Of a stretch of DNA of 64,000 bases, positions 1 through 63,922 are shown piece after piece. The translations under genes and the position numbers were made by a program. The DNA is from Octopus vulgaris. Taxonomy: Eukaryota. The stretch spans positions 17,918,001-17,982,000 of the forward strand of contig OX597840.1 in assembly GCA_951406725.2 (NCBI GenBank), given 5' to 3'. How positions within the stretch are numbered: position 1 is the first letter of the stretch; the number at the start of each line of letters is the position of its first letter. The notes below the pieces were generated by a model that searched no databases, was not told where the DNA came from, and saw only the letters and a list, made by a program, of their open reading frames with translations.

Positions 1-667
1 CTTTGATCTCTTTCGGGACAATGTTAAATAGGGCAGGACCTGTTGAGGAAAAGAAATTATGTTGCAGTGTACATGTATGCTTGAATTGGGCAGGGGACGT
101 ATGGCCCAAGGTCCCAGTCTTGGATGAACCTTGAAGCTAATGTTCAGGTCGTTTGGGCAAAGTTGGCGGTATATTCTCCACATCGTACAAATGATGTACC
201 GCTCACAGCGACGCTGGAGAGAGTAAAGTTTCAAGGCTTTAAGGCGATCCCAATAATCGAGAGCAGCCATGCCTTCAATTCGTTTAGTGAGTGCCCTCTG
301 GGGTGACTCAATCCTCGAGATGTTTTGTCTTGTATGGGGAGACCACAGTGGGCAGCAGTATTCGAGGTGTGGCTGTACAAAGGAGGAGAAAAGTGGTATG
401 ATGACACCTTGTTCTCTGGACCGGAAAGTTCTTAAGATCCAGGAACTCATCCTACGAGCTATATCGACCTTCTTGTTGATGTGTGCACTCCAACTGAGAT
501 CGTCATCAGCAATTACACCCAGGTCTCTGATATTGTTAGAGGCTGTGAGCGGTTCCCCTGAAGGAAGAGAGTATGGCTGTTTTAGTGAGGAATTTCTTCC
601 AAAATGCATCAGCTCAAATTTTCCCTCATTCAGTTTGCATTTTGTTTCTGTCTGCCCATTGACTCAC
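1..667 (-). mobile_element. CR1-like LINE fragment (C-terminal RT region)
   Basis: The minus strand translates to ...NNIRDLGVIADDDLSWSAHINKKVDIARRMSSWILRTFRSR...FVQPHLEYCCPLWSPH...LDYWDRLKALKLYSLQRR..., typical of CR1 ORF2. Related copies lie at 7580-7960 and 57620-58262. Confidence 0.85.
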
Positions 668-46995: not shown

Positions 46996-47232
46996 ATATC
47001 TGGAATTACTGTTTGCAAGATGTGTGCGGTGGATCATCAAAGACCCTGGTATGTGATGAGGGGTCCATCATCCTTATCTACAACGTCCAAAAGGCTACAA
47101 ACAGTGCTTTTCAGAACCGATCGTTTCAAAACTTCCGAAACAGCTGTATGGGCCGGAAAGAGTGTCAGCTGAACAACATTTGCCCGGACAATAAGAGCAT
47201 TCGGCTAAAAGTCACTTATACTTGTGTCAAAG
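46996..47232 (+). CDS. Receptor gene exon A: divergent SUEL/galactose-rhamnose-lectin-like domain
   Basis: ttgcag|...AAAG|gttagg, 237 nt, phase 1-1. Translation IWNYCLQDVCGGSSKTLVCDEGSIILIYNV...NSCMGRKECQLNNICPDNKSIRLKVTYTCVK matches the SUEL pattern C..G..I.I / C.GR..C / CP....L.V.Y.C. Confidence 0.85.
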
Positions 47233-47448
47233 GTTAGGATGACCTTTACATTTCACTAATTCCAAATACAGAGAGAGGAGAGGAAAAGAGTGTAAGAGAG
47301 AGAGAAATAAAGAGAGGCAGAGAGAAAGAAATAAAGAGAGAGAGAGAGAGAAAGACCAAGAGAGTGTGAGAGATAAAGAGGGAGGGAGAGAGAAGTAATT
47401 ATGTATGAATATGCTGTAGTATTATTTTCTCTTTCTTTGTATTTTCAG

Positions 47449-47817
47449 AAACCCAAAGAATAAAATCTTGCAGCCAAAGTGAACTCTCGAAACCAAAGGG
47501 CTTCATCCAGAATGAGAAATATCCTTCCATGTCTATCATTGGAGTTTGCCAATGGAAAATCCATGTTCCTCAGGAGTCTTTCATTATACTGCGTCTTCAT
47601 GATGTCATGCTTCAGCAACCATCGAAAGGGGCTTGTGCAGTTGGCTTAAGGATAGTCACTGAGAGACCATGTGAAGGCCACAACTTCACCAGTGAAATTA
47701 TTTGTAGAAGCAAACAGAGTTTTCAATCCAGATATTTTCTCGCCTGTGGTAATGTGACTGTGATGCAGGTCAGCAACACAGAAATGCACCGTTTTCGGTT
47801 TTGGATTTCTTATGAAG
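47449..47817 (+). CDS. Receptor gene exon B: CUB domain
   Basis: ttttcag|...GAAG|gtaaca, 369 nt, phase 1-1. Translation SCSQSELSKPKGFIQNEKYPS...CQWKIHVPQESFIILRLHDVML...C...LRI...IC...GNVTV...RFRFWISYE. Confidence 0.9.
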
Positions 47818-47835
47818 GTAACATGTTTCTCTTAT

Positions 47836-47874
47836 TCTTTTCTGTTGAAGAGCATAGGCTCGAAATGTAAAAGA
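47836..47874 (+). ncRNA. Minimal hammerhead-like motif (core variant CTGTTGA) in a short H1-related element at ~47825-47941
   Basis: TCTTTT-CTGTTGA-A-GAGC ATAG GCTC-GAAA-TG-TA-AAAGA. Confidence 0.5.
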
Positions 47875-47973
47875 CTTTTTCATTTTCCTGAGTGTTGTTC
47901 ATACACCTGTTTTCATATTTTGTTTTTCTATAAACTTCAACTATATGTATATATACATATACGTATATATATA

Positions 47974-48485
47974 TCTATATATATAAAACTGTAGTTGTGT
48001 GAGTGTCTGTCCCCTTCGATTTAGATTCCTAACTACTCCCACATTTTGCGGTGCAGTTTAACCAAATTCGGGTATCTTATAGTCGTGATTCATATCAAGC
48101 CCGTCTGAGTATTAGCGCGTGTCTACGATGAGTCTACGATTTTAAAAATAATTTAACATCATTTTTTATTCCATTTTAATGCATAATTTTTCGTGTGTCG
48201 ATGGTGGCGGAGTTGGTGTCCATGGTCACACCTGCACCTGTTTGCTTCTCCCCCTTCTTCCCTCCCTCGTGAAGCTGTGGGGAAGGGAGTGTAAGGAAAT
48301 CAACGTCGTAAAGCATTGTCAAGGAGACCAGCGTTCTTTTAGAACAATGACTTCATGGCTTGAAGACACCAAAACAGAAATGGCTAAGAAAGCCCGAATT
48401 GGCATCTATAAGGGAAGTAACTCTCTAAAAATGCTTATATAGTTATTTCCCTTACAAACCCGAACAACGCCGGGCGATACTGCTA

Positions 48486-48486
<1 letters not shown>
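47974..48486 (+). mobile_element. Non-autonomous Helitron
   Basis: 5' TCTATATATATAAAA, 3' CCCG-AACAACGC-CGGG hairpin + CTAG, inserted between A and T. Confidence 0.75.
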
Positions 48487-48532
<46 letters not shown>

Positions 48533-48746
48533 CAAAATAAGCAACAAGGATATCCAGAGCAACTCCATTTAATTGAACAATGCAATCATTACATCAATTT
48601 AAATGCTCTTGTTGTTTATTTTGATTTTAATTACCTTACTTTGAAATTGTATGGATAATACCGTACTAAGTTCTGGTGCCTCAACTTAAGTACCATATTA
48701 ATCTGAATCTATCTATCTATCTATCTATAAATATATATATATTATA

Positions 48747-49325
48747 CACAGACATGCAGAAGTAAATAGACACCTTTCATTTTTCAAAATCTTTTATTTG
48801 ATATTAATTGGTTGAAGGAGAGGTTTTCTTCTAGCTGCTCGTCCATAATACCCAAGCTTATGCAGATATTTAACACACGTTCTTGGACTAACTTCTAGCT
48901 GTTTTGCAATGCCAGAAGCCTTCAAACAGGGTTCGTTTTCCACAATTCTTTTCAAACAGTGAAGCTTCCTTTCTGAGGGCCCAGGTCGGCTGGGATGAGA
49001 ATCTGTTGATTCTTTTCCTTGGCTTTTGAATTGCACTATAATTCTATTAACAGTAGCAAGAGGAATTTGAAGATTTTCGGCAATTTTTCCCTGGCTAAGA
49101 CCAGCGTCAGATTGCCCAACAATACGACCTCTTTGAAAATCTGACAGTTGTGCTGAATTTTTTGTGCAAGGCATGGTTACTCTTTCACAAATGTTTAATA
49201 TCATGGCACCTGGAATGGAAAAGAATAATTACATTGTAAATTCTACTCCACTGAAAACATATTAAGACGCTTAGATCAGAAATTTTGACAATTAAATGTG
49301 TCTATTTACTTCCTGTGTGTCTGTG
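48747..49325 (-). mobile_element. Internally deleted Tc1-like transposon retaining an intact N-terminal HTH ORF (48794-49204)
   Basis: TIRs CACAGACATGCAGAAGTAAATAGACAC / GTGTCTATTTACTTCCTGTGTGTCTGTG; protein [12 protein letters not shown]...GLSQGKIA...[13 protein letters not shown]. Confidence 0.85.
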
Positions 49326-49369
49326 TGTGTATTTGCTTTGAAGACATGAAATCATGTGTTGAAACAAAC

Positions 49370-49693
49370 ATTGTTATATTTCAGGTTGGTCTTTTTTTTT
49401 GCCAAATAAACACATTCAGTATATATTGATTCTTCTATATTGTTTGTTATTGTTCTTATACTATCTTATGTTTATTGTCTGGAAATCTTTCATCACATAT
49501 ATTTGATTTCTTTAGTGAACCTTTCCATCCACATGTATCCTGCTACTGGAGGATCACTGTTGAGGTCACAGACGTGTGACGAAAGATTTCCAAACAATGG
49601 ACATAAGATGAAATAAGAACAATAATAAACGAGTATATAGTGTGTGTGTGTTTATTTGGCAAGAAAAATATTACCATCCCAAAATATAACAAT
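49370..49693. repeat. Diverged inverted repeat (49370-49497 / 49575-49693)
   Basis: TTGCCAAATAAACAC / GTGTTTATTTGGCAA and TGGAAATCTTT / AAAGATTTCCA. Confidence 0.7.
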
Positions 49694-50062
49694 ATATATA
49701 TAATGTAATTATACTTCAAAAAGTAGAAAAACACTCAGTTAATTAAGAGAGTAAAGATAATCTTAAATTAAAAATCACAAATTATAGCTACTCAGAGTTT
49801 TCAGGTCAAAATAATTATCAAGCTGAAAGCAAGACCATTTGTCAGTTGTCTTTTGAGCTGATAACATTTAAAGAAGAAATAATTGGAGGAATAAGTTATC
49901 AGCTTGATTAAAAAGTAAGCAACATTTTGAACCATGAAGAATTTGTACTGGATTTTTGCAGATTTTGAATTTTTTAAAAATTATATTTTTGAAATTTTCT
50001 GATAATGCAGTCATAGACTTGCCCAAATGCATCAATAAATTAACATTGATATTTCGTCTGAA

Positions 50063-50685
50063 ATGGAACTGTCAAAGTACGATATTTGGGCGATTTTGCT
50101 ATTCAACTTCAAAAAAGGACGTAAAGCAGCTGAAACTGCTCCCGATATCAATGAAATGTTTGGTGAGGAAATGACCAGTGAGGGGTCAGCTTGAAAATGG
50201 TTTAAACGATTTCGCAGTGGATACCTGAGCCTTGAAGATTGTGAGCATAGTGGACACGCATCTGTCATTGACAACAATCAATTAAAGACCGTCATCAAGA
50301 AAGATCCACGTAAAACCACTCAAGAACTGGCAAAAGAACTTCTAGTTAGCCAGAAAACTGCCTGCAACCATTTGCATGCCATCAGAAAATCAAATAAGCT
50401 TGACAAATGGGTACCGCATGATTTGAATCAAAATCAGAAAATGCGCAGATATGAAATTTGCTCGTTGCTTCTTCTCTGTAACCAGATCGATCCATTTCAA
50501 GACTGTATTGTAACTTGCAGTGAAAAGTGGATTCTGTACAATAATAAAAAATATTCTTTGCAGTGGTTGGACCAAAATGAAGCACCAAAAACCTTCCCTA
50601 AACCCGAGCTCTTCAAAAAGAAGGTTATGGTGACTGTTTGGTGGTGTACTGCTGGACTTATCCACTATAATTTCTTAAAACCTGA
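50063..50685 (+). pseudogene. Mariner (DD34D) transposase pseudogene, 3' truncated
   Basis: MELSK...FKKGRKAAETA...*KWFKRFRSG...KWVPHDL...IVTCSEKWILY...KKVMVTVWW, with an in-frame stop. Confidence 0.9.
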
Positions 50686-50792
50686 GCATGTTGACTAAAG
50701 AATAATTTTTTTATAGAATTATTATCCTTACCATCATCATTTAATGTCACACTACTTCACATAAAAAATCTTGCACAACAAATACTTAAACG

Positions 50793-50825
<33 letters not shown>

Positions 50826-51125
50826 GTATATACGCACATATGTAAATGTTGAACTATGAAAATGCATTCTCAATGCCACATTTGTGATTGGAGATTCTTT
50901 ATTTGTCTATTAAGGCTACCATTGGTTTCATCTTAATATCTTAACAATTTTTCAAATTGATCACATGGAGGAATGGTGTTTGTCTCCATTTTGGATAAAA
51001 ACATGTGTGTGTGTTTGTGTTTGTGTGTGTGTGGACTGGCTTATTCATTTTTTTGTTTACCTTTTTATAGTCTTATTTGCCTATTGGTATACCTAATCAT
51101 TTTTTTATTTATTGTTTGTTCACAG

Positions 51126-51302
51126 TACAGACATTTGCCGCTAATAAGCTGTCCTATCTTTATGATAAAAATCTAAACTGCATCGACTCTAAAGTAGGGT
51201 ACCAGACCTGGAAAGTTGACCAAGTGAACAGCCCTCACCTTAGCCATGTTTCTTCTAACCATTCCATTCTCTCAGAGACAACTAAGTTACCATTCAATGC
51301 AA
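51126..51302 (+). CDS. Receptor gene exon C: stalk
   Basis: ttcacag|...GCAA|gtgagt, 177 nt, phase 1-1, open frame VQTFAANKLSYLYDKNLNCIDSK...LPFNA. Confidence 0.75.
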
Positions 51303-51564
51303 GTGAGTTAACTATTGATTTATATAATGCTGTTGTTGGGTGCGTGTATATGTGTGGGTATGTAAAGCATGTGAGTGTGTGCATGTGTGTGTACGTAGGT
51401 TTTCTTCCACTTTTAATTATTTGAATTCTTCCCCAGAGGAAAGATCTGGCTTCTAACTAAGGTACAAAGCTCCATTGTTAGAATGTCACATTTTGAATTT
51501 CAGAAAAGTCTTGCATATTTTTACTGTTCCACTTACAGATTATAAAATTGTATTTGCAATGTGC

Positions 51565-52685
51565 ATATGTATGTATGTATGTATGCATGTATGTATGTAT
51601 GTATGTATGTATGTATGTATGTATGTATGTATGTATGTATGTATGTATGTATGTATGTATGTATGTATGTATGTATGTATGTATGTATGTATGTATGTAT
51701 GTATGTATGTATGTATGTATGTATGTATGTATGTATGTATTTATTTATTTATGTATGTATGTATGTATGTATGTATTTATGTATTTATGTATGTATGTAT
51801 GTATGTATGTATGTATGTATGTATGTATGTATGTATGTATGTATGTATGTATGTATGTATGTATGTATGTATGTATGTATGTATGTATGTATGTATGTAT
51901 GTATGTATGTATGTATGTATGTATGTATGTATGTATGTATGTATGTATGTATGTATGTATGTATGTATGTATGTATGTATGTATGTATGTATGTATGTAT
52001 GTATGTATGTATTTATGTATTTATGTATGTATGTATGTATGTATGTATGTATGTATGTATTTATGTATTTATGTATGTATGTATGTATGTATGTATGCAT
52101 GCATGTATGTATGTATGTATGTATGTATGTATGTATGTATGTATGTATGTATGTATGTATGTATGTATGTATGTATGTATGTATGTATGTATGTATGTAT
52201 GTATGTATGTATGTATGTATGTATGTATGTATGTATTTATGTATTTATGTATGTATGTATGTATTTATGTATGTATGTATGTATGTATGTATGTATGTAT
52301 GCATGCATGCATGCATGCATGCATGTATGTATGCATGCATGCATGCATGTATGTATGTATGTATGCATGCATGTATGTATGTATGTATGTATGTATGTAT
52401 GCATGCATGCATGCATGCATGTATGTATGTATGCATGCATGTATGTATGTATGTATGTATGCATGCATGTATGTATGTATGTATGTATGTATGTATGTAT
52501 GTATGTATGTATGTATGTATGTATGTATGTATGTATGTATGTATGTATGTATGTATGTATGTATGTATGTATGTATGTATGTATGTATGTATGTATGTAT
52601 GTGTGTATGTATGTATGTATATATGTATGTATATATGTATGTATGTATATATGTATGTATGTATATATGTATGTATGTATGTATG
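51565..52685. repeat. ~1.1-kb (ATGT)n microsatellite with ATGC/ATTT variant blocks
   Basis: Direct inspection. Confidence 0.98.
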
Positions 52686-52963
52686 TGGTATTTTACACAT
52701 TGCTACTTTCTGAGTTCAAATTCCGCTGAGATCAGCTTTGCCTTTCATTCCTTCGGGGTCAATAAATTAAGTACCAGCTGCATACTGGGATTGATATAAT
52801 CAACTACTCCTCCCTCAAAACTTCAGGCCTTGTGCCTATAGTAGAAAGGATTATTATTATTGTTATTGTTGCTGTTACTGATGTGGCAGCCTTCATATCC
52901 TGAGTTCAAATTTCAAGCTGACTTTGCCTTTAATCCTTGCTGGCCTTGTGGCAAAATTTGAAA

Positions 52964-53027
<64 letters not shown>

Positions 53028-53050
53028 CATTATTATTATTATCATTATTA

Positions 53051-53608
53051 TTGAGTGAGAGAGCACTGCATGCCATCAAAGTGACACTGGGGTACAAATA
53101 TACAAATCCCAGTATACCCATCATGACTACCCGTCTGATAAGGGTACACTAGACACATGCATCACAACCATATGTGCATGACATGGTGATCTCATATCAA
53201 GATTAACAGTGCATGACCTTGCAGGTGGGGCCCAGTGAGAATTTTCTTCTGGTCGAGTAACCCATCCCACTCAAAAGGTCCTTGAATAAGGGTTGTTTAA
53301 GGATGTTGAACGAAATAACCATGTTTTCAAATGTAAATTATCCAAAACCCAAAGAATCCCTCTCAACACATGGCTAAGATGCTCCCCCACTACTTCTGCT
53401 CGTGATCAGAGATGCACATATCGTCAGCCACTAAGGAACATGGTCAACTGGTTACGGTCAAACAACTGACAAGCAAATCTGTAGTATTGACCAGAATATT
53501 TGCTGTAGCCCATCTTTTATACCAAGACAAAACAATGTACATGATAACACTTCCAATCAGTTAAGATCAGAAGCCATGAGAGTCACTGCTTGGCACTGCA
53601 TCAGGGCA
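53051..53608 (-). mobile_element. ~560-bp non-coding element flanked by (TAA)n
   Basis: Second copy at 1558-1847; the orientation is inferred from the long (AAT)n tract at 52966-53050. Confidence 0.7.
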
Positions 53609-54159
53609 TAATGTTGTTGTTGTTATTGTTATTATTATTACTCTGCTTCTTCCTTTTCTCCTTTTTCATCTTCTTCTTCTCCTACTTCTCCTCCATTTGG
53701 TCTTTTTCTCCTTCTCCTCCTTCTCTCCTTTTCTTCTTTTTTCTTTTTCTACTTCCTCTCCTCCTCTTCACCTTCTATTTCTCCTTTCTCTCCTCCTCCT
53801 TGCACCAGTCTACTCACCTGTAAATGACTGTTGCTTTAGCATTGGTGCCCTCTCTCTCTCCCTCTCTCTCTCTCTCCCTCTCTCTCCCTCTCTCTCCCTC
53901 CCTCTCTCTCTCTTTCTCTCTCTCTCTCTTTCTCTCTCAGTCTTTCTCCCTCCTATGCTCCCACATTTTGCTTGCTCCACTGAGTCAAAGAGAGGAAAAC
54001 CGAAAGAAATTTTGTGCCTACTCATGATTACAATATGCAAGTAAAGCAATTCGTTTTACTCGCTTGGAAGTGACGGCTATTTTTCTAATCTTACTTTTAT
54101 TTATAGTTCTGCTTAATTTATTTTTCCTCTTCTTCTTCTTCTTCTTCTTGCACCACTAG

Positions 54160-54246
54160 CATCACCAGGGAGCGACTCGGACAACTTCAACGGGACATTA
54201 AATACAAGCAACAAAATGAAGCCATCAGTTCCTCTGTATAACTTAA
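54160..54246 (+). CDS. Receptor gene exon D: juxtamembrane stalk
   Basis: (ctt)n...cactag|...TTAA|gtaagt, 87 nt, phase 1-1; TSPGSDSDNFNGTLNTSNKMKPSVPLYNL. Confidence 0.7.
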
Positions 54247-54464
54247 GTAAGTAATATGGAAAGTGTGAGAGGGAGAGGAGTGAGAGGAGAAGGGGAAGGA
54301 AGGGGAGGAGAAGGAAAAGAGAAAAGGGAAGGAGTGGAGGAAGGAGACGAAAAGTGTGGAGAAGTAGTCTTTAATAAATTCAAAAAAATTCCTTTCTTTC
54401 GTCAAGTTTTCCCTTTCATTTTCTTCATTTTAACTAATTCAAATTTATATAAATATATATATAA

Positions 54465-54872
54465 GGCACAGGAGTGGCTGTGTGGTAAGTAGCTTGCTTA
54501 CCAACCACACGGTTCTGGGTTCAGTCCCACTGCGTGGCACCTTGGGCAAGTGTCTTCTACTATAGCCTCGGGCCGACCAAAGCTTTGTGAGTGGATTTGG
54601 TAGACGGAAACTGAAAGAAGCCCATCATATATATATATGTATATATATGTATATATATGTGTGTGTGTGTTTGTGTGTCCCCCCAACATCGCTTGACAAC
54701 CGATGCCGGTGTGTTTACATCCCCGTTACTTAGCGGTTCAGCAAAAGAGACCGATAGAATAAGTACTAGGCTTACAAAGAATAAGTCCTGGGGTCGATTT
54801 GCTCGACTAAAAGGCAGTGCTCCAGCATGGCCACAGTCAAATGACTAAAACAAGTAAAAGAGAAAGAGAAAG
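54465..54872 (+). mobile_element. Family A SINE, full length
   Basis: Family motifs. Confidence 0.9.
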
Positions 54873-54888
54873 AGATATATGTGTGTGC

Positions 54889-54929
<41 letters not shown>

Positions 54930-55106
54930 CACATACATACAGTAATCCCTTGCCATATCACGGTTCATCTATGGTGCACTCAGAACATCGTAGATTTTTC
55001 TGGCTAATATAAGTAAATTTATATCACAGATCCCTAAGTATACCTGGGTTTCTGCAGCCGATAGGTATTTAGATTTTCTTGGATTTTAATTACTTCTGTG
55101 TATATA

Positions 55107-55145
<39 letters not shown>

Positions 55146-55235
55146 GCATGTGTGTGTGTATATATATATATAGATAGATAGATAAATTATAAATATATGT
55201 GTGCATGTGTTTATATACATATGTATGTACGTACC

Positions 55236-55626
55236 ATAAATCCTCAAGTATAGTCCGCCCTTGAGTATAATACGCAGGGGATTTTTAGGGGGCTGTACCT
55301 CTGATAAACCTAAACCTTGTGTATAATATGCACCCCTTCTCTAACTTGAGTCAAGGAGGTCTATATAATGTCTTTGGTTTGTAAAAATGTATATGGTAAC
55401 GTCCTTTATTATTATTGTATATATAACATAATGCAAACGTGTAGCTTTTTTGTGCATTTTGTTCGTGCCTGACATCACAAAATGCGTCTAAATAAACATA
55501 GCTGGACAGCAAATAGAGACTCGGACATTGCTTAGAAGATATTTTTCATTTTTAACCTCGTATATAGTACGCACTAGGGATTTTGACCTTTAAATTTTGG
55601 GGAAAAATTGTGGATTATACTCGAGG
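55236..55626. mobile_element. Pogo/Tc2-like MITE
   Basis: CCTCAAGTATAGTCCGC / GTGGATTATACTCGAGG inverted ends with subterminal repeats. Confidence 0.55.
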
Positions 55627-55687
55627 CTGTATGTATATATGTATGTATGGATGGATTTATAAATGTTATTGTTAATATCTTTTGCAG

Positions 55688-55757
55688 AACTCATACTGGC
55701 AATTGGTGTACCATTGTTGGCAATCATCTTATTTGTTTCCATTGGAATATGTTACTG
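55688..55757 (+). CDS. Receptor gene exon E: transmembrane helix
   Basis: ttttgcag|...TG|gtaagt, 70 nt, phase 1-2; KLILAIGVPLLAIILFVSIGICY(W). Confidence 0.85.
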
Positions 55758-56414
55758 GTAAGTACATTTTTATTGGGCATGCATAGAAAATCAAAAATTT
55801 ATTCTGTATGAATACTTTTTTCACCCCTCAATATCTATAATTGTATATAAATTCCTTAGTTACTATAATTTATTAGTTTCTATTGCATATTCTTAGTTTA
55901 TGCATGTGTATGCAAATATAGTATTGGTATATCCCCTTTATGTTCATTAGAAATTAAATAAATGAAGAATTTTGACATGTACGAATATTTATTTCCCCCC
56001 ACTGTATATATATATTATAATAAATGCGAAAACTAATTTCTGTGTGTCAGTGTGTCACACTTCGACCCACTCTCTCACTATTCAATGACACTTTTTCTTG
56101 CTGGGGTGAGAGTAATAGTAGGCACAGAGACAGTGAGGGTGGTGGCAAAGACAGAGAGAGAGGGCGAGAGAGAAAGAAAAAGAGAGGGAGAGAAAGAGAG
56201 ACAAAGAAATGTAGGGAGAGTTGATGATGTTTTATTAAAAGTAGTAGTGTTGATGTTGGCGTGGGGAGTGATGATAAGAGAGAGAGAAAGAGTGGGTATG
56301 TGAGAGAAAGAGGGAGATGATGTACAACTTTCCTGGGCAGAAATTCCGGTGGCCAACATACTGAACTAACTACTGGACACTATCATTTTTATTTTATTTT
56401 TTGCTTTCTTTAAT

Positions 56415-56461
<47 letters not shown>

Positions 56462-57010
56462 CACTTTAATTGAAATACAGTTTCCCCAAAATTAAACATA
56501 TCTAATATAATAAATGTGAAACGTTAGTGTGTCAGTGTGTCACACTTTTTCAACTTTACACCTAGAGGTTGTAGCTCTGCTTCATTTGGCTCACAGCATA
56601 TCATCCAGCCTTCGTCTCTGCACTTATGGTCTTCCATAATATCTTAATCTCCTTCTTCACTGTGCTTTGTATCCAACATGGCAGCAACTCTCTGGGACTG
56701 ATGTTCTCTCGTTGACTCCAGTTTTAACCAGTAGACATCAGCACCATCTGTCGATGTCTATCACAGAATTATTTATATATTTTCTATTTCCATATTATAT
56801 TTATTCATTCATTTGAGGCATTCATTCATGCATATTTGTATATTTATGTTCATCTTGTATTTTATCAGTTCCCACCAACGCCACACCTCACTCATGTACT
56901 CCTCACCCCCACCATTATCCCTACTCTCCGGTTGTTTAACAGTTTAAAGATGGTGGCGTTATACTCAATCCGAGGCATTAGCAGATATATATGTGTGTGT
57001 GTGTGTGTAT

Positions 57011-57210
57011 GTGACCACGTGTGTACCGTTGGCGATTTTTTTTCCTCCGTCTTCTTCCCTTCTCTGGATCTTTCCTTCTCCTATGTTTCCGACAAAGAGC
57101 TCCGCTCGAAACGTTAAGCCCTCCTTCTTTCCTTCTTTCCTGAGCATCAAATAATACTACATTTGTTCCACGTCCTCGCGTTGTGTTTTTTTGTGCTTTC
57201 ATGTTTGGAT

Positions 57211-57213
<3 letters not shown>
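57011..57213 (+). mobile_element. H1 hammerhead-bearing element
   Basis: Motif at 57085-57119: GTTT-CCGACAA-A-GAGC TCC GCTC-GAAA-CG-TT-AAGC, with palindromic AACGTT stem III. Confidence 0.8.
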
Positions 57214-57247
<34 letters not shown>

Positions 57248-57462
57248 TGTTTGTAAATATATGTGTGTGTGTATATTTATATATATATGAATATTTTTAT
57301 ATATATATGTATATATATATATATGTCGTCTTTGGATTTGGTTTGCAAGATTCTTTATATGAGTTTGTGTATTGAAGCATATTCTGTTGTGTCTGGGGTG
57401 AGTGATTTTCTTTTTGCACCTTATAATTTAACACACTCACCGGTAAAATTTCTACTTATTTC

Positions 57463-57514
<52 letters not shown>

Positions 57515-57619
57515 CACACACACACACACACACACGCATATATATATCTATTTATACATATAATATACATAAACATACATATATAAATATATTATATATA
57601 TATATATACCTTGATACTT

Positions 57620-58262
57620 TGATAGCACCACCTGGCAAAGTCATTCAAGTCAGGAACAACAGTATTCAAGGTGGGGTTGGACAAAATTAGAGAAGAGAAG
57701 GATAATGGTGTGGATATCTCTCAACTGGAGAGTTCTGAGAATCCAGGAACACATTCTGTGGGCCCCGTCAACTTTGCTGTTTATATGAGTGGCCCAGCTT
57801 ATGTTGTTGTTGTCCACAATTACTCCCAAGTCTCTGATGTTGTTGAATGCCATGAGAGTTTCACCTGATGTTTCATGGGAGTTTCAGGGTATCCTCTTTC
57901 CCAAAGTGGATTAACTCAAATTTGTCCTCATTCAGCAGCCTATTATTCTTTTCTGCCCATTCGATGACAGCCAGTCGATCTGACTGAAGGCATGCCTGGC
58001 CATCTACGCCATTGATGACCTTCTGGATCTTGGAATCATCTGCAAAGATTCTTATGTTGCTGTGCTTGATGATGCCAGTAAAGTCATTGATATAGATGGT
58101 GAAAAGAGGTTGGCTCAACACAGTGCCTTGTGGAACACCACAACTGACTTTGACTGGGCTTGATTTTACTCTTCAACTGCAATGTGTTGGGTTCTGCCTG
58201 TCAGGAACCACTTGATCCATTGTAGTGACTTTCCAGAGACACCAATGCTGGATAGTTTTTTC
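57620..58262 (-). mobile_element. CR1-like LINE RT fragment
   Basis: SCGVPQGTVLSQPLFTIYINDF...IRIFADDSKI...IRDLGVIVD...PHLEYC. Confidence 0.9.
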
Positions 58263-58559
58263 CATGTGCAGAGCCTGTAATGTAGGGAATAAGGGCATAT
58301 TTTGAAGTTACTTGTTAGTGTCATGGGGTGCACATTTCACTTCATGGATGATTTCAAGTTTTTGTTTATACTACAGTAGAATTGAGGTAGCAATGAGGAG
58401 GAAGAAAGCAGTGGTTTATTTTTAGCATTTGAGGTGGTAGAAGATGATGGTGGCAGCAATGGTGATGACGAGGAAGATGACGATGACGATAATTGTGGTG
58501 GCAGTTCACTAAATCAGTTATTATGCTAGAATTTAGGAGTGGCTTTTCCTGTTGTTGTT

Positions 58560-58619
<60 letters not shown>

Positions 58620-58743
58620 GATAGATAGATAGATAGATAGATTGTGAAGTATATTTGCCACTTAGATGTGGCTAACCCTTAAGGGTAGATGCTACTTTAG
58701 CTTGTAGCCCCAGGTGGACACCTCCTCCACCTGGCTATTGACA

Positions 58744-58789
58744 CACACGGACTTGGTATTTCTGGGTATTGACTCGTCATCAGCGTGTG
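58744..58789 (-). ncRNA. Type I hammerhead ribozyme (core intact, stems II and III partly decayed) in a structured ~170-bp element
   Basis: CACACG-CTGATGA-CGAGT CAAT ACCCA-GAAA-TACCAAG-TC-CGTGTG, with a 6-bp stem I and a GUC site. Confidence 0.65.
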
Positions 58790-58888
58790 ACAATCACCGA
58801 TTGCCTAAGTGAAGTCGTTCTCAATGCAAATATATATATATCCTTTTTCCAGTGATGAAAAGCCACTGACGATAATTATCTCGAAAAA

Positions 58889-58931
<43 letters not shown>

Positions 58932-59145
58932 TGTATGTATGCATGTGTGTGTGTATGTATGTATATCTATAGATAGATAGAAGAAAAAGATGTTTTTTTC
59001 TGCGGTATTGGATGGAACTATTCTAATTAGTAAATTCATTTGACAACAAAAAGATAAATGAAGAGAATTGGTACGGGGTGAGGCGGGGGTTTGGGTGTTC
59101 CATATCTTAATATTTTCATTCAGAACTCCTTTCTCTACTGTAGTC

Positions 59146-59176
<31 letters not shown>

Positions 59177-59429
59177 GTGTGCGTGAGTGTGTGTGTGTGT
59201 GTGTGTGTGCATGTGTGTGTGTGTTTGGGAATCATCTTGAACAGAAGTTCTCAACTGGGGCCCACAACCCCTAAGGGGCGTGGGTCCTCATGGTCCTTGG
59301 GGTGGGGCGGGGAAGTTCAATATAAGATTTTGTTGTTAAAATTTATGTGCAATAAAATTGTTATTCTATGAAATACAGAAAATATTTTAAACAATTTTTT
59401 TATGCCATCCTCTTTTATATCTCCTTTCC

Positions 59430-60370
59430 CTTTCACTTGTTACAGTCATTAGACTGTGGCCATGCTGGGGCACCACCTTGAATTTATTTCAGTCGAATGA
59501 ATTGACACCAGTATTTATTTTTTTCCTTTTCTTTAAATCTCTTACTTATTCTATCAATCTCTTTTCTTTGCCAAACCGCTAAGTTACATGGACAGAAACA
59601 CACCAACACCGGTTGTCAAGCAGTGGTGAGGGGCAAACATTGGCACAAAGACACACACACACACACACACTCACACATACACACACACACACACACACTC
59701 ACTCACACACATTCACACTCACACACACACACTCACACACACACTCAAATTCACACACACACTCACATTCACACTCACACAAACACACACACACTTACAC
59801 TCACACACACACACTCACACACACAAACACACACACTCACACATTCACGCACACACACTCACACACACACTCTCATACACACACACACACGTATAGATTC
59901 AGCCATGGCTGTGTGGTAAGAAGCTTGCTACCCAGCCACATGGATCTGGGTTCAGTCCCACTGCATAGCACCTTCGGCAAGTGCCTTCTACTATATCCTC
60001 AGGCCAACCAAACCCTTCTCAGTGGATTTAGTAGACAGAAACTGAAAGAAGCCGGTTGTATATATGTGTATATATGTGTGTGTGTGTGTGTGTGTCTGTC
60101 TGTCTATGTTTGTCCCGTTGCTTAACAACTGATGTTGGTGTGTTTACATCCCTGTAACTTAGCAGTTCAACAAAAGAGACAAAAAGAATAAGTACTAGGC
60201 TTAAAAAGAATAAGTCCAGGGGGTCAATCCCCTTGACTGAAAAACCCTTTAACTCACAAGACTTTGATTGGATCAAGGCTATAGTAGAAGACATTGCCCA
60301 AAGTGCCAAGCAGTGGGATTGAACCTGGACTCATGTGGTCAGGAAGCAAACTTCTTATCACACAGCCATG
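59430..60370. mobile_element. Family A SINE cluster in alternating orientation (-, +, -)
   Basis: Copies at 59430-59650, 59895-60240 and 60255-60370. Confidence 0.75.
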
Positions 60371-60409
60371 CCAATTCTTAATAATATTTAATTCCAAAAA
60401 GGACTGTAG

Positions 60410-60455
<46 letters not shown>

Positions 60456-60576
60456 CAAATGGCTATGGAAGTCCAGTAGAGTAGAATTGGAAACAAAGGA
60501 ATGAAAGGATTCCAAAGGCAAAAAAATGGTTGAAAAGCTCTGGTCTAGAAGGAAACAACATAATTTCATGATTTAA

Positions 60577-60796
60577 CCCTTCTGATACCGATCCATCTGA
60601 AACCACCTTGGCTTTGTAGTACAAATGTCTTGTTTTCATAAGTTTTAAATTAAAATTTTCCATCAAACCTTAGCCACAATTATGTTCCTAACACCAGCTT
60701 AATGTTAACGAAGTTATTTCGCTAAATTCTTTGTTATATTTAAAATTAATTGAAAGAAACAGAGAGCATCTCAAAATAAATATGGTATCAAAAGGG
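60577..60796. mobile_element. piggyBac-type MITE
   Basis: TTAA|CCCTTCTGATACC...GGTATCAAAAGGG|TTAA. Confidence 0.85.
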
Positions 60797-61669
60797 TTAA
60801 TGATGTCGCTTCTTAATCCTCATTATGATACATCTGGCTAGATTTTCCAACCATATCCAATAACTGACTTAATATCAAGACAAACAGTTGGAATTCCAGG
60901 AAACCAATAATCTCTTTGTGGTGACAGCAATTAATCCGAAGAATAAAAGCTTAGAATAAATTTTGTTCTTTGTTATGCATAAGATTTATATCACTGTTTT
61001 TTCGTTTTTCTTAATTATCGCATTTAATGAATCTTCTGGCCTTGCTACAGAAAGGTCACAAACGGTGGTGAGAGCTGATTGGTCAGTCTTAAATGCAACA
61101 CATCGATCAGTCTTTTATCTCTTTTACTTGTTTCTGCCATTAGACTGCGGCCATGCTGGGGCACCACTTTGAACATCTTTTTGTGAAACAAATCAGTCTC
61201 AGTAGTTATTATTTTTTTTAAGCCTGGTACTTATTCTATCAGTCTCTTTCACTGAATTGCTAAGTTACAGGGGTGTAAACACACCAACACCAGTTGCCAA
61301 GTGGTAGTGGGGGACAAACACAGAGAAAAAAGCACACACACACACCACACACACAGACATAGACACACACAGGCATGCACACACACACACACACACACAT
61401 TATGAGCTTCTTTCAGTGTGTCTATGTGTATCATCATCATCATCGTTTAACATCCACCTTTTATGCATGCATATATAAAAGTACATTTGGTAGGATATAT
61501 TATCTGGGCAGATACCGTATTGGCTCTCAGTTAAGATCCAGTTAATGGCTAACTACAAGGATTAGCATCTAACATCTGTCTACATTTAGTTGTTAGTCAC
61601 TCCGTAAATTCTTTCGATGGGTAATTCTGTGTATTCTTTGCTGGACAGTAAAAATTCTCAGGAGTATAT

Positions 61670-62305
61670 ACTCTTTTACTCTTTTAATCTTTTACTTGTT
61701 TCAGTTATTTGACTGCGGCCATGCTGGAGCACTGCCTTTAGTCGAGCAAATCGACACCAGGACTTATTCTTTGGAAGCCTAGTACTTATTCCATCAGTCT
61801 CTTTTGCCAAACCGCTAAGTTACAGGCACGTAAACACACCACCATCGGTTGTCAAGTGATGTTGGGGAGACAAACACAGACACACAAGCATACACATACA
61901 TATATACATATATACAACGGGCTTCTTTCAGTTTCTGTCTACCAAATCCACTCACAAGGCTTTCATCAGCCCGGGGCTATAGTAGAAGATACTATATAAG
62001 GTGGCGAGCTGGCAGAAACGTTAGCACACCGGGCGAAATGCGTAACCGTATTTCGTCTGTCGTTACGTTCCGAGTTCAAATTCCGCCGAAGTCGACTTTG
62101 CCTTTCATCCTTTCAGGGTCGATAAATTAAGTACCAGTTACGCACTGGGGTCGATGTAATCGACTTAATCCGTTTGTCTGTCCTTGTTTGTCCTCTCTGT
62201 GTTTAGCCCCTTGTGGGTAGTAAAGAAATATATAGTTGAAGACACTGAACCCAGAACCATGTGGTTGGTAAGCAAGCTACTTACCACACAGCCACTCCTT
62301 CGCCT
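61670..62305 (-). mobile_element. Family A SINE interrupted by a Nin-like SINE (61998-62229, +)
   Basis: Duplication TATAGTAGAAGATACT (61978-61993) / TATAGTTGAAGACACT (62231-62246) flanks the insert. Confidence 0.8.
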
Positions 62306-62434
62306 CCTTATTTCTAAAGATTTTTTATGTTATAAATAATTTTTAATTCAATTTTTAATCTTTTTCGCACACACATAGTAATTAACTTCATTTTCGTATG
62401 TTTATTTGATTTTCATTTTTGATTTTTTTTTCAG

Positions 62435-63344
62435 GAGAAGTAAAAGAAGTAAAAGAAAGAACAATCCCGTATCAGCCAAAGATGCTGCTGTCCAGACACT
62501 GGTTTCTCGGAACATAGAAAACGTCCGACATGCTAATGGAATACTGCCCTTGCAATGCTCAGACAGACACCACCCAGCTATACAGGAAGGCTACAGTCAT
62601 GTTGCCGACGAAGTTCCGTTCCCAGAAGCAGCCAAAATGATTGACGCCACAGTCAACACTTGTGAAGCCTACACTGAGGTGGATGAAGGACAAATAGGGA
62701 CCGTCAAGCCCTTGTCCGATAGATTTCGATACCATATTGCTCGTTCTCTGCCTGCTCTGCCTGGGAAAAAATCGTCATCCAACGACGAATGGACATCCAC
62801 CAGATCACGAGGTTCTAGTAGCCGTGCTTCGATTGGTAGTGAAAATGACTATCAGAAAGCTATCTATGAAGAAATTCCTGATTATTACGAATGCAAAAAG
62901 CATCCTTCGAATTATTCTCCAAGAGTGTCAGAACCAAGTTCCGTAGAAACAGATTCAGGAATTGAATCTGAAGACAAACTAGCTCGCAGTCGTTTGGAAC
63001 GTATTCAAAATCCAACGAATCCTGGTGCTTTGCCTCCTTATAGTAATCTTAATTCTAATCTTAAAACTAATACCAATTCTTCATCGTCGTCGACGTCATC
63101 TTCGTCGTCTGGGTCTCACAAATCTCCCCCAATTCCAGCCCTCAATCCAAGAGGTGAAATTAAATCAGACGACATGTCACAAGACGTAACAGATCCTAAA
63201 TATCATGTGGTAGAAAGGAATTGCACACAGAACAATGTCGGAGAGACGAACTGTAGAGGACATTCAATCGCTAGATCTGGTGATGATGGTTTAGTGTTAT
63301 TAGAAAATGAAATATATGAGCCTTATTATCAACAGACAGACTGA
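62435..63344 (+). CDS. Receptor gene exon F (terminal): basic stop-transfer sequence and ~300-aa tyrosine-motif cytoplasmic tail
   Basis: tttttcag| at phase 2 completes TGG (W); translation RSKRSKRK...YEEI...DSGIES...NEIYEPYYQQTD*. It is a 910-nt open, non-repetitive frame. Confidence 0.9.
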
Positions 63345-63922
63345 AAATACGAGTGAATGTGTGTGATAAAATATCTGTTCTCTAATCAAGAAAACTTGCT
63401 TTAAAATACTAAAAACATCACCACCAATTTACCAATATTTCACAATGGAAAAAAAACCCTATTTCCTTCATAATTATTAAGAATTAACAGGAAGAAATTG
63501 TAAGAAGAACTGGTCAGGATTTTCATGTCACTGTTTCATAGCTTTCTTGCATTTCTTTAAAACAAAAAAAAAACATGACTGCCACGTTGATGGTGGTGGC
63601 CATGTCTGGGTTTCAAGAAGTATATTGTGTACGGCGGAAAATGCAAGGAATGAATGAATGCGGGAATGAATGAGTGTATGAATGAATAACTCAGTGAATG
63701 AATAAATATATAAAATAGAATGGAAATTATGGTGATTGGTGACAGAAATAATTGCTTAAACTAAGCAGAAATGTATCGGCTTATTGTGCCACATGCAGAA
63801 ATGCACACACATGTACACATACACACATATGCACTTCACCTCATATATATATATGTGTGCGTGTGTGTATACACATTCATATGCGTGTATATATGTATAT
63901 ATATATATATATATATAATAAA

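Follow-up and report, generated by a model that had tools for sequence, protein, structure and literature searches.

Rhamnose-binding lectin (RBL) domains, which have the SUEL fold, are defined by the motifs YGR, DPC and KYL together with eight cysteines (accessible part of PMC10817417), while sugar binding needs a glutamate after the first cysteine as well as a lysine in loop 2 (PMC2430599, in excerpt). The same excerpt presents EVA-1 as a Slit co-receptor and proposes that RBL domains attached to receptors bind proteins, as also the sugar-blind domains of EVA-1 and latrophilin (PMC2430599). On the cytoplasmic side, Cbp/PAG1 engages Csk through YSSV and the SH2 domain of Src through YEEI/V, and it is palmitoylated next to the membrane (PMC3492796, in the part available). 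The present work deals with a gene of Octopus vulgaris, six exons of which (46996..63344, forward strand) lie in a window of 64,000 nucleotides (positions 17,918,001 to 17,982,000 of contig OX597840.1, assembly GCA_951406725.2). Its product is predicted to be a non-catalytic type I receptor that binds a protein ligand and, in the manner of Cbp/PAG1, likely offers docking sites for Src-family kinases and Csk in its tail, a reading to which a probability of about one half is given.

The DCBLD, neuropilin, CDCP1 and Neto families combine CUB with LCCL, FV/VIII, MAM, LDLa or further CUB domains, and DCBLD and CDCP1 signal via Src-phosphorylated tyrosines of the tail. Like DCBLD1/2, neuropilin, CDCP1, Neto and Kremen, the octopus protein is a non-catalytic type I protein with CUB in its ectodomain, but it differs from those families in that this ectodomain holds only a SUEL fold, one CUB domain and a disordered stalk, no LCCL, FV/VIII, MAM, LDLa or extra CUB domain being detected. 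EVA-1 of C. elegans and EVA1C (C21orf63) are alike in being single-pass, non-catalytic proteins with a SUEL/RBL-fold ectodomain that has lost its sugar-binding residues, and EVA1C clusters of the Atlas are structural neighbours of the octopus fold. EVA-1, however, carries a pair of RBL domains and lacks a CUB, whereas the octopus protein has one SUEL fold and one CUB, with loop 1 and its two cysteines gone; no EVA sequence appeared among the named matches of the family searches. Latrophilin/ADGRL, CSL3 and SUL-I share the fold and the core cysteine spacings, yet the octopus domain departs from latrophilins and RBLs in having seven cysteines rather than eight, the extra cysteines C29 and C244, no YGR, DPC or KYL and no glutamate after the first cysteine, and from latrophilin in having neither a seven-transmembrane nor a GAIN part and no match to Pfam PF02140. 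The likeness to Cbp/PAG1 is at the level of short motifs only, YSxV, YxEV/YEEI and a juxtamembrane cysteine being present in 20, 29 and 24 of 29 family members (near-full-length sequences, the basis of all family counts below unless another number is stated); Cbp/PAG1 has no folded ectodomain, and no sequence homology between it and the octopus protein was found. Orthology to EVA-1, DCBLD, CDCP1 or latrophilin was rejected. By analogy, the octopus protein would work like EVA-1 outside the cell and like DCBLD, CDCP1 and PAG1 inside it, but it is a member of none of these families, which do not share its arrangement of a single SUEL fold with a single CUB.

Splicing of the window exons by their coordinates yielded a single open frame of 615 codons, ending in TGA (63342-63344), with AG/GT at every boundary and entering phases of 1-1-1-1-1-2. 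All exons lie on the forward strand. Coding exon 2 (46996..47232, phase 1-1) carries the SUEL/RBL fold (residues 24-102, seven cysteines, a shortened loop 1, no YGR, DPC or KYL), and coding exon 3 (47449..47817, phase 1-1) the CUB domain (residues 103-225, six cysteines), recognised by Pfam, by structure match and by Foldseek. Coding exon 4 (51126..51302, phase 1-1) encodes the segment after the CUB with Cys244 (codon at 51179) and the beginning of the stalk, which continues through coding exon 5 (54160..54246, phase 1-1), for which Argonauta P0004 has a homologous stretch. Coding exon 6 (55688..55757, phase 1-2) provides the transmembrane helix and a juxtamembrane cysteine, and coding exon 7 (62435..63344) the basic stop-transfer sequence and a cytoplasmic tail of 302 residues, predicted to be disordered, up to the TGA; a possible polyadenylation signal, AATAAA, follows at 63701..63706 (+). 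The best 19-residue hydropathy in the helix is 2.83, with RSKRSKRK directly after it, and all eight N-X-S/T sequons are N-terminal of it, each of them common to only 2-8 of the 29 members. No catalytic domain is present in the predicted protein.

The six-exon model is identical, with 0 differences, to the last 615 residues of P0002 (CAI9741834.1, 639 residues), and shows 3 mismatches over 565 positions when compared with P0001 (O. sinensis XP_029652486.1), the one longer protein found by a search with the CUB exon and the protein to whose cluster P0002 belongs. Both are public gene predictions with the same junctions as ours, although P0002 is not counted as independent support because it is probably derived from the same assembly. 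In this way the six exons, their splice sites, phases and 615 codons, as proposed in an earlier note made from the sequence of the window alone, were confirmed, and its stalk, helix and stop-transfer sequence, its count of eight sequons (their positions not being conserved in the family) and its description of the protein as non-catalytic were likewise borne out. What it missed was the 5' end. The 24 residues absent from the window model form a hydrophobic start, signal-peptide-like by its appearance rather than by a predictor, and coding exon 1 (70 nucleotides, from ATG to a final G followed by gtaag, ending in phase 1 and encoding residues 1-23) was located 138.7 kb upstream, at G000:C27:17826256-17826325, outside the window; with it the full-length protein reaches 639 residues. 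The first coding intron (G000:C27:17826326-17964995) thus spans 138,670 bases, and window bases 1-46995 lie inside it. An artefact of chance open reading frames was rejected. The last exon was matched in 20 of the 24 sequencing runs listed, 14 of these being guessed to be RNA and 0 recorded as such. Six members (P0008, P0010, P0019, P0047, P0057 and P0062) are full-length proteins of 570-733 residues on contigs of only 2.1-2.6 kb, which would fit mRNA and so lend indirect support to the splicing in relatives.

As regards the head of the receptor, residues 25-103 matched lectin domains, with Z-scores of 8.0 for ADGRL3, 7.9 for CSL3 and 7.3 for SUL-I (root-mean-square deviation 2.6-2.7, 71-74 aligned residues), and the leading structure matches outside the CUB were consistently of the SUEL-type fold. 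Comparison of the exon with SUEL clusters of the Atlas gave TM-scores of 0.72-0.79, to be taken as leads only, as all Atlas feature matches were below 0.9. The AlphaFold model, computed with a 20-row alignment, reached block means of the predicted local distance difference test (pLDDT) of 81-94 over residues 31-190 and 201-230, with low values in stalk and tail; the fold of the SUEL exon from its single sequence (pLDDT 45.6) was not used. Pfam PF02140 matched neither the exon nor the whole protein, and was absent from the 25 listed of the 35 families recorded across 20 members. The fold proposed by the earlier note was therefore recovered through structure, and the motifs which it had reported missing are missing throughout: YG[RK], DPC and K[YF]L occur each in 0 of 29 members, and at the position after the first-equivalent cysteine (C34, by spacing) glutamate is found in none and aspartate in two. 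A canonical lectin was rejected, the known sugar-contact features being absent in 29/29. The protein might still be a haemocyte pattern-recognition receptor for carbohydrates with a remodelled lectin site, which would agree with the SUEL fold and with the action of RBLs in mollusc immunity (PMC10817417, accessible part), but this is very improbable in view of those absent features, of a loop 1 shorter by ~15 residues and of a single-copy gene whose slow, taxonomy-following tree is unlike that of diversifying immune receptors.

The cysteines tell how the domain has been rebuilt. The SUEL domain holds seven of them in 18 of 19 members, versus the canonical eight, the pair of loop 1 having gone; the spacing between C43 and C74 is 26-31, against 46 in Lat-1, which makes loop 1 about 15 residues shorter. 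The core spacings of 9 and 6 match those of C41-C50 and C96-C102 in Lat-1 and, judged by spacing, C43-C100 and C74-C80 probably keep two core disulfides, while C34 and C86 are left without their usual partners. Two further cysteines belong to the family, C29 (27/29) and C244, the latter in the exon after the CUB and present in all 29. Two new disulfides may form among C29, C34, C86 and C244, for instance C34-C86, which would span the old pocket, and C29-C244, which would clamp the head; the AlphaFold model leaves C244 unplaced. P0022 of Candidula lacks C29 and keeps C244. A sequon at N53, beside the would-be YGR site, occurs in 14/29 members, the octopus not among them. Elsewhere in the octopus genome three canonical SUEL matches were found, L015, L016 (G000:C8) and L017 (G000:C18), covering only Pfam positions 40/44-80, which suggests an internal intron in these three, unlike the single-exon SUEL fold described here.

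The second domain of the head is a CUB, as had been predicted, both by profile (PF00431, 22.0 bits in octopus against a cut-off of 21.4, and a match in 14/20 members with a best E of 1.2e-9) and by structure, since residues 108-229 matched ADGRG6 with a Z-score of 12.3 (root-mean-square deviation 2.4, 109 aligned), with Foldseek in agreement. A calcium-binding subset of CUB domains has a Tyr-Glu-Asp-Asp signature (PMC10850435, in the part available). Sequence-level proxy patterns for it occur in 1/29 (C.YD) and 3/29 (F.[ST]D), but an acidic residue stands at position 154 in 29/29. In Dreissena P0036, C110 and C136 are lost together, a joint loss which supports their pairing in the CUB.

The distribution of the family was established with phmmer against 1.84 billion representative proteins, which gave 30 matches. 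Among the 20 looked up, 17 were named molluscs, two had no name and one was a fish protein, P0032, dropped as a member because it matched through the transmembrane segment only, with no score over SUEL or CUB; P0003, among the remaining ten, is from O. bimaculoides. Relatives occur in cephalopods, bivalves and gastropods; no named match outside molluscs, from phmmer or from the box profile described below, had SUEL or CUB domains, and no chiton, annelid or brachiopod stood among the named matches, these single-sequence or word-limited searches not implying absence outside molluscs. A weak word-index search with the full-length profile returned only six cephalopod-like matches, and phmmer of P0002 against PDB sequences returned 0. 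In the 21-member tree a branch separates each class from all other members, with support of 100/100 for cephalopods, 100/99 for gastropods and 87/86 for bivalves. A 35-row tree agreed with this; Solemya grouped there with the pteriomorphs. The only duplication seen was that of P0022 and P0049 in Candidula unifasciata, whose placement is weakly supported. In the octopus genome, queries with the CUB exon, the SUEL exon, P0002 and the scallop protein P0007 found this locus only, five other places in the P0002 search all having E >1; these searches score the top candidates alone, so that distant paralogues are possible.

Single copy and relatives in three mollusc classes speak for an old, conserved function over a cephalopod novelty. 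As far as sequences can tell, the gene is old within molluscs and mostly present as a single copy, and a cephalopod-specific gene was rejected because of the bivalve and gastropod relatives; the "lineage-specific" receptor of the earlier note is thus upheld at the level of Mollusca and not as an innovation of cephalopods. Its view that no named gene could be assigned held as well, since each named relative is labelled "uncharacterized", "hypothetical" or "CUB domain-containing", and no clear orthologue among characterised genes was found among the named matches. No published description of the gene or of its architecture was found in a literature search mostly outside subscription journals, and supplementary expression tables may list such loci. 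The receptor is real, and its family is undescribed in the literature searched.

Nowhere is the tail better conserved than in a two-tyrosine box (62580..62681, +), also overlooked before, with Tyr390 (YSHV, codon 62592) and Tyr416 (YTEV, codon 62670), hereafter Tyr1 and Tyr2. Its form, LxxxYSxVAD...SPxYAEV with 20-27 residues between the tyrosines, is recognisable in 29/29 members, the invariants being Y-x-x-V-x-D and then Y-[AVT]-E-[VI] (Y/V/D and Y/E in 29/29). The columns of the box have a mean conservation of 0.52, above that of the folded domains (0.44-0.45) and of the remaining tail, where it falls to 0.24. When used alone, a 41-column profile of the box, built from 16 members, retrieved 44 proteins, of which the 27 named ones are all molluscs and the other 17 have SUEL/CUB heads or family-type tails; it matched no meaningful Pfam family and no solved structure. 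Shuffling produced the box pattern in 3 of 29,000 tails, and a loose pattern of two YxxV/I in 4% of shuffled octopus tails, for which reason it is the conservation, and not any single sequence, that carries weight. Ser-Pro stands just before Tyr2 in 24/29 members, but none of the three cephalopod rows has it (62658-62669 in the window).

Downstream, YEEI at Tyr481 (62865..62876, +) is a Src-SH2-type motif (by the available part of PMC3492796). The C-terminal NEIY (63306..63317, +) is shared by octopus and bivalves and absent from gastropod members. Such N-x-x-Y sequences form a motif class bound by PTB adaptors. Other ends are found in gastropods, [RK]N[GS]IxxFE in 7/29 members (heterobranchs) and a LYPLQEGRVA stretch in caenogastropods, the members with replaced C-termini being P0012, P0017, P0022, P0024, P0056, P0061 and P0062, and P0019, P0021 and P0046. 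At the inner end of the transmembrane helix a cysteine is present in 24/29.

Agreement with Cbp/PAG1 rests on YSxV at Tyr1 (20/29) and YxE(V/I) at Tyr2 (29/29). The same box could, with both tyrosines phosphorylated, activate the tandem-SH2 phosphatase SHP2, and the protein would then be an inhibitory receptor like PD-1 or SIRP: the tyrosine spacing brackets the 25 residues between Y223 and Y248 of PD-1 (PMC7078208, in excerpt), and I/V/L at +3 of both tyrosines and A/S/T/V at +1 of Tyr2, in 29/29, are part of the SHP2 consensus (PMC10231330, in excerpt). Although spacing and the +1/+3 positions fit, the box fails the SHP2/ITIM (immunoreceptor tyrosine-based inhibitory motif) consensus because the residue at -2 is hydrophobic in 0/29 at either tyrosine, being D/E/Q at Tyr1 and P at Tyr2; activation of SHP2 is thus unlikely. 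With this, and with a search of the octopus tail for the ITIM pattern giving no match, a canonical ITIM receptor was rejected.

Lysosomal sorting signals have the form GYxxPhi, and mu2 is not known to require a glutamate at Tyr2+2, an aspartate at Tyr1+5 or a fixed spacing. An endocytic or sorting receptor, in which unphosphorylated YxxPhi signals would serve AP-2/AP-3 and N-x-x-Y an endocytic PTB adaptor, is favoured by both tyrosines fitting YxxPhi and by a glycine before Tyr1 in 18/29, but it is quite unlikely, as the signals are separated from the membrane by ~43-68 residues (in the rows listed) and are far from the C-terminus, the acidic context suits kinases, and those invariant acidic residues and the fixed spacing would be superfluous for mu2. 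Decidedly unlikely, too, is an adhesion function in which the box would form a helix (L-4, Y0, V+3, A+4, I/L+7) that docks a FERM, PTB or cytoskeletal scaffold regardless of phosphorylation, with PDZ-type ends in bivalves. The conserved positions are helix-periodic and 12/29 members end in [STQ][AV][HKD]V, but AlphaFold shows no helix at the box (pLDDT <50), the octopus protein ends in QQTD and a proline stands at +8.

In the preferred reading, a Src/Csk-docking receptor, the SUEL-CUB head would bind a protein ligand or a partner receptor, and clustering would expose Tyr390, Tyr416 and Tyr481 to phosphorylation by a Src-family kinase. By their motif likeness, Tyr416 and Tyr481 (Y-x-E-V/I) would then hold the SH2 domain of Src, while Tyr390 (Y-S-x-V) would recruit Csk, as on Cbp/PAG1; in cephalopods and bivalves the C-terminal N-x-x-Y may add a PTB adaptor. 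The whole would amount to a non-catalytic receptor or co-receptor setting local Src activity at cell contacts. Several points weigh against it. The SUEL Z-scores of 7.3-8.0 are near the stated noise level of the tool, 7-8; the box pattern used on the shuffled tails was derived from the same sequences as those tested; the residue at +1 of Tyr1 is F, C or Y in 9/29, mostly gastropods, departing from YSxV; and neither the third tyrosine nor the C-terminal N-x-x-Y occurs throughout the family (N..Y[ED] in 14/29). Moreover, conservation around Tyr1 spans -4 to +8 (L 24, A 27, D 29 and P 24 of 29), wider than a typical SH2 site, so that another type of partner may read it. A more far-reaching proposal, unlikely though not far-fetched, is an ancient single-copy mollusc receptor in which a sugar-blind SUEL-CUB head with rewired disulfides is combined with a new signalling motif of two tyrosines, neither ITIM nor ITAM (the activation counterpart), with its own effector, which would have been the core for an expansion of tandem SUEL-CUB arrays and would belong to a phylum-wide cell-recognition pathway unknown in model animals.

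Molluscan cell-surface signalling has so far been described mainly via homology with flies and vertebrates, while the receptor described here is kept across cephalopods, bivalves and gastropods with two of its three conserved parts invisible to Pfam. It offers defined targets: one ectodomain, one 40-residue peptide and one single gene. Should the tail prove to be a Src/Csk switch, an extracellular cue would be linked to Src control across the whole phylum.

A search for further exons of the family in the 64-kb window found none. Intron 3 holds a Mariner/Tc1-type transposase remnant with an in-frame stop (50042-50692, +; PF01359, E 7.5e-16), and a reverse-transcriptase fragment lies at 57876-58172 (-; PF00078, E 1.3e-6, below the cut-off). 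The stretch at 1-663 (-) has no Pfam match, and by its motifs we take it to resemble the end of a long interspersed nuclear element (LINE) ORF2. Intron 4 contains an array of ~1.1 kb of TATG-type tetranucleotide repeats (51579-52690), and tandem repeats make up 13% of the window.

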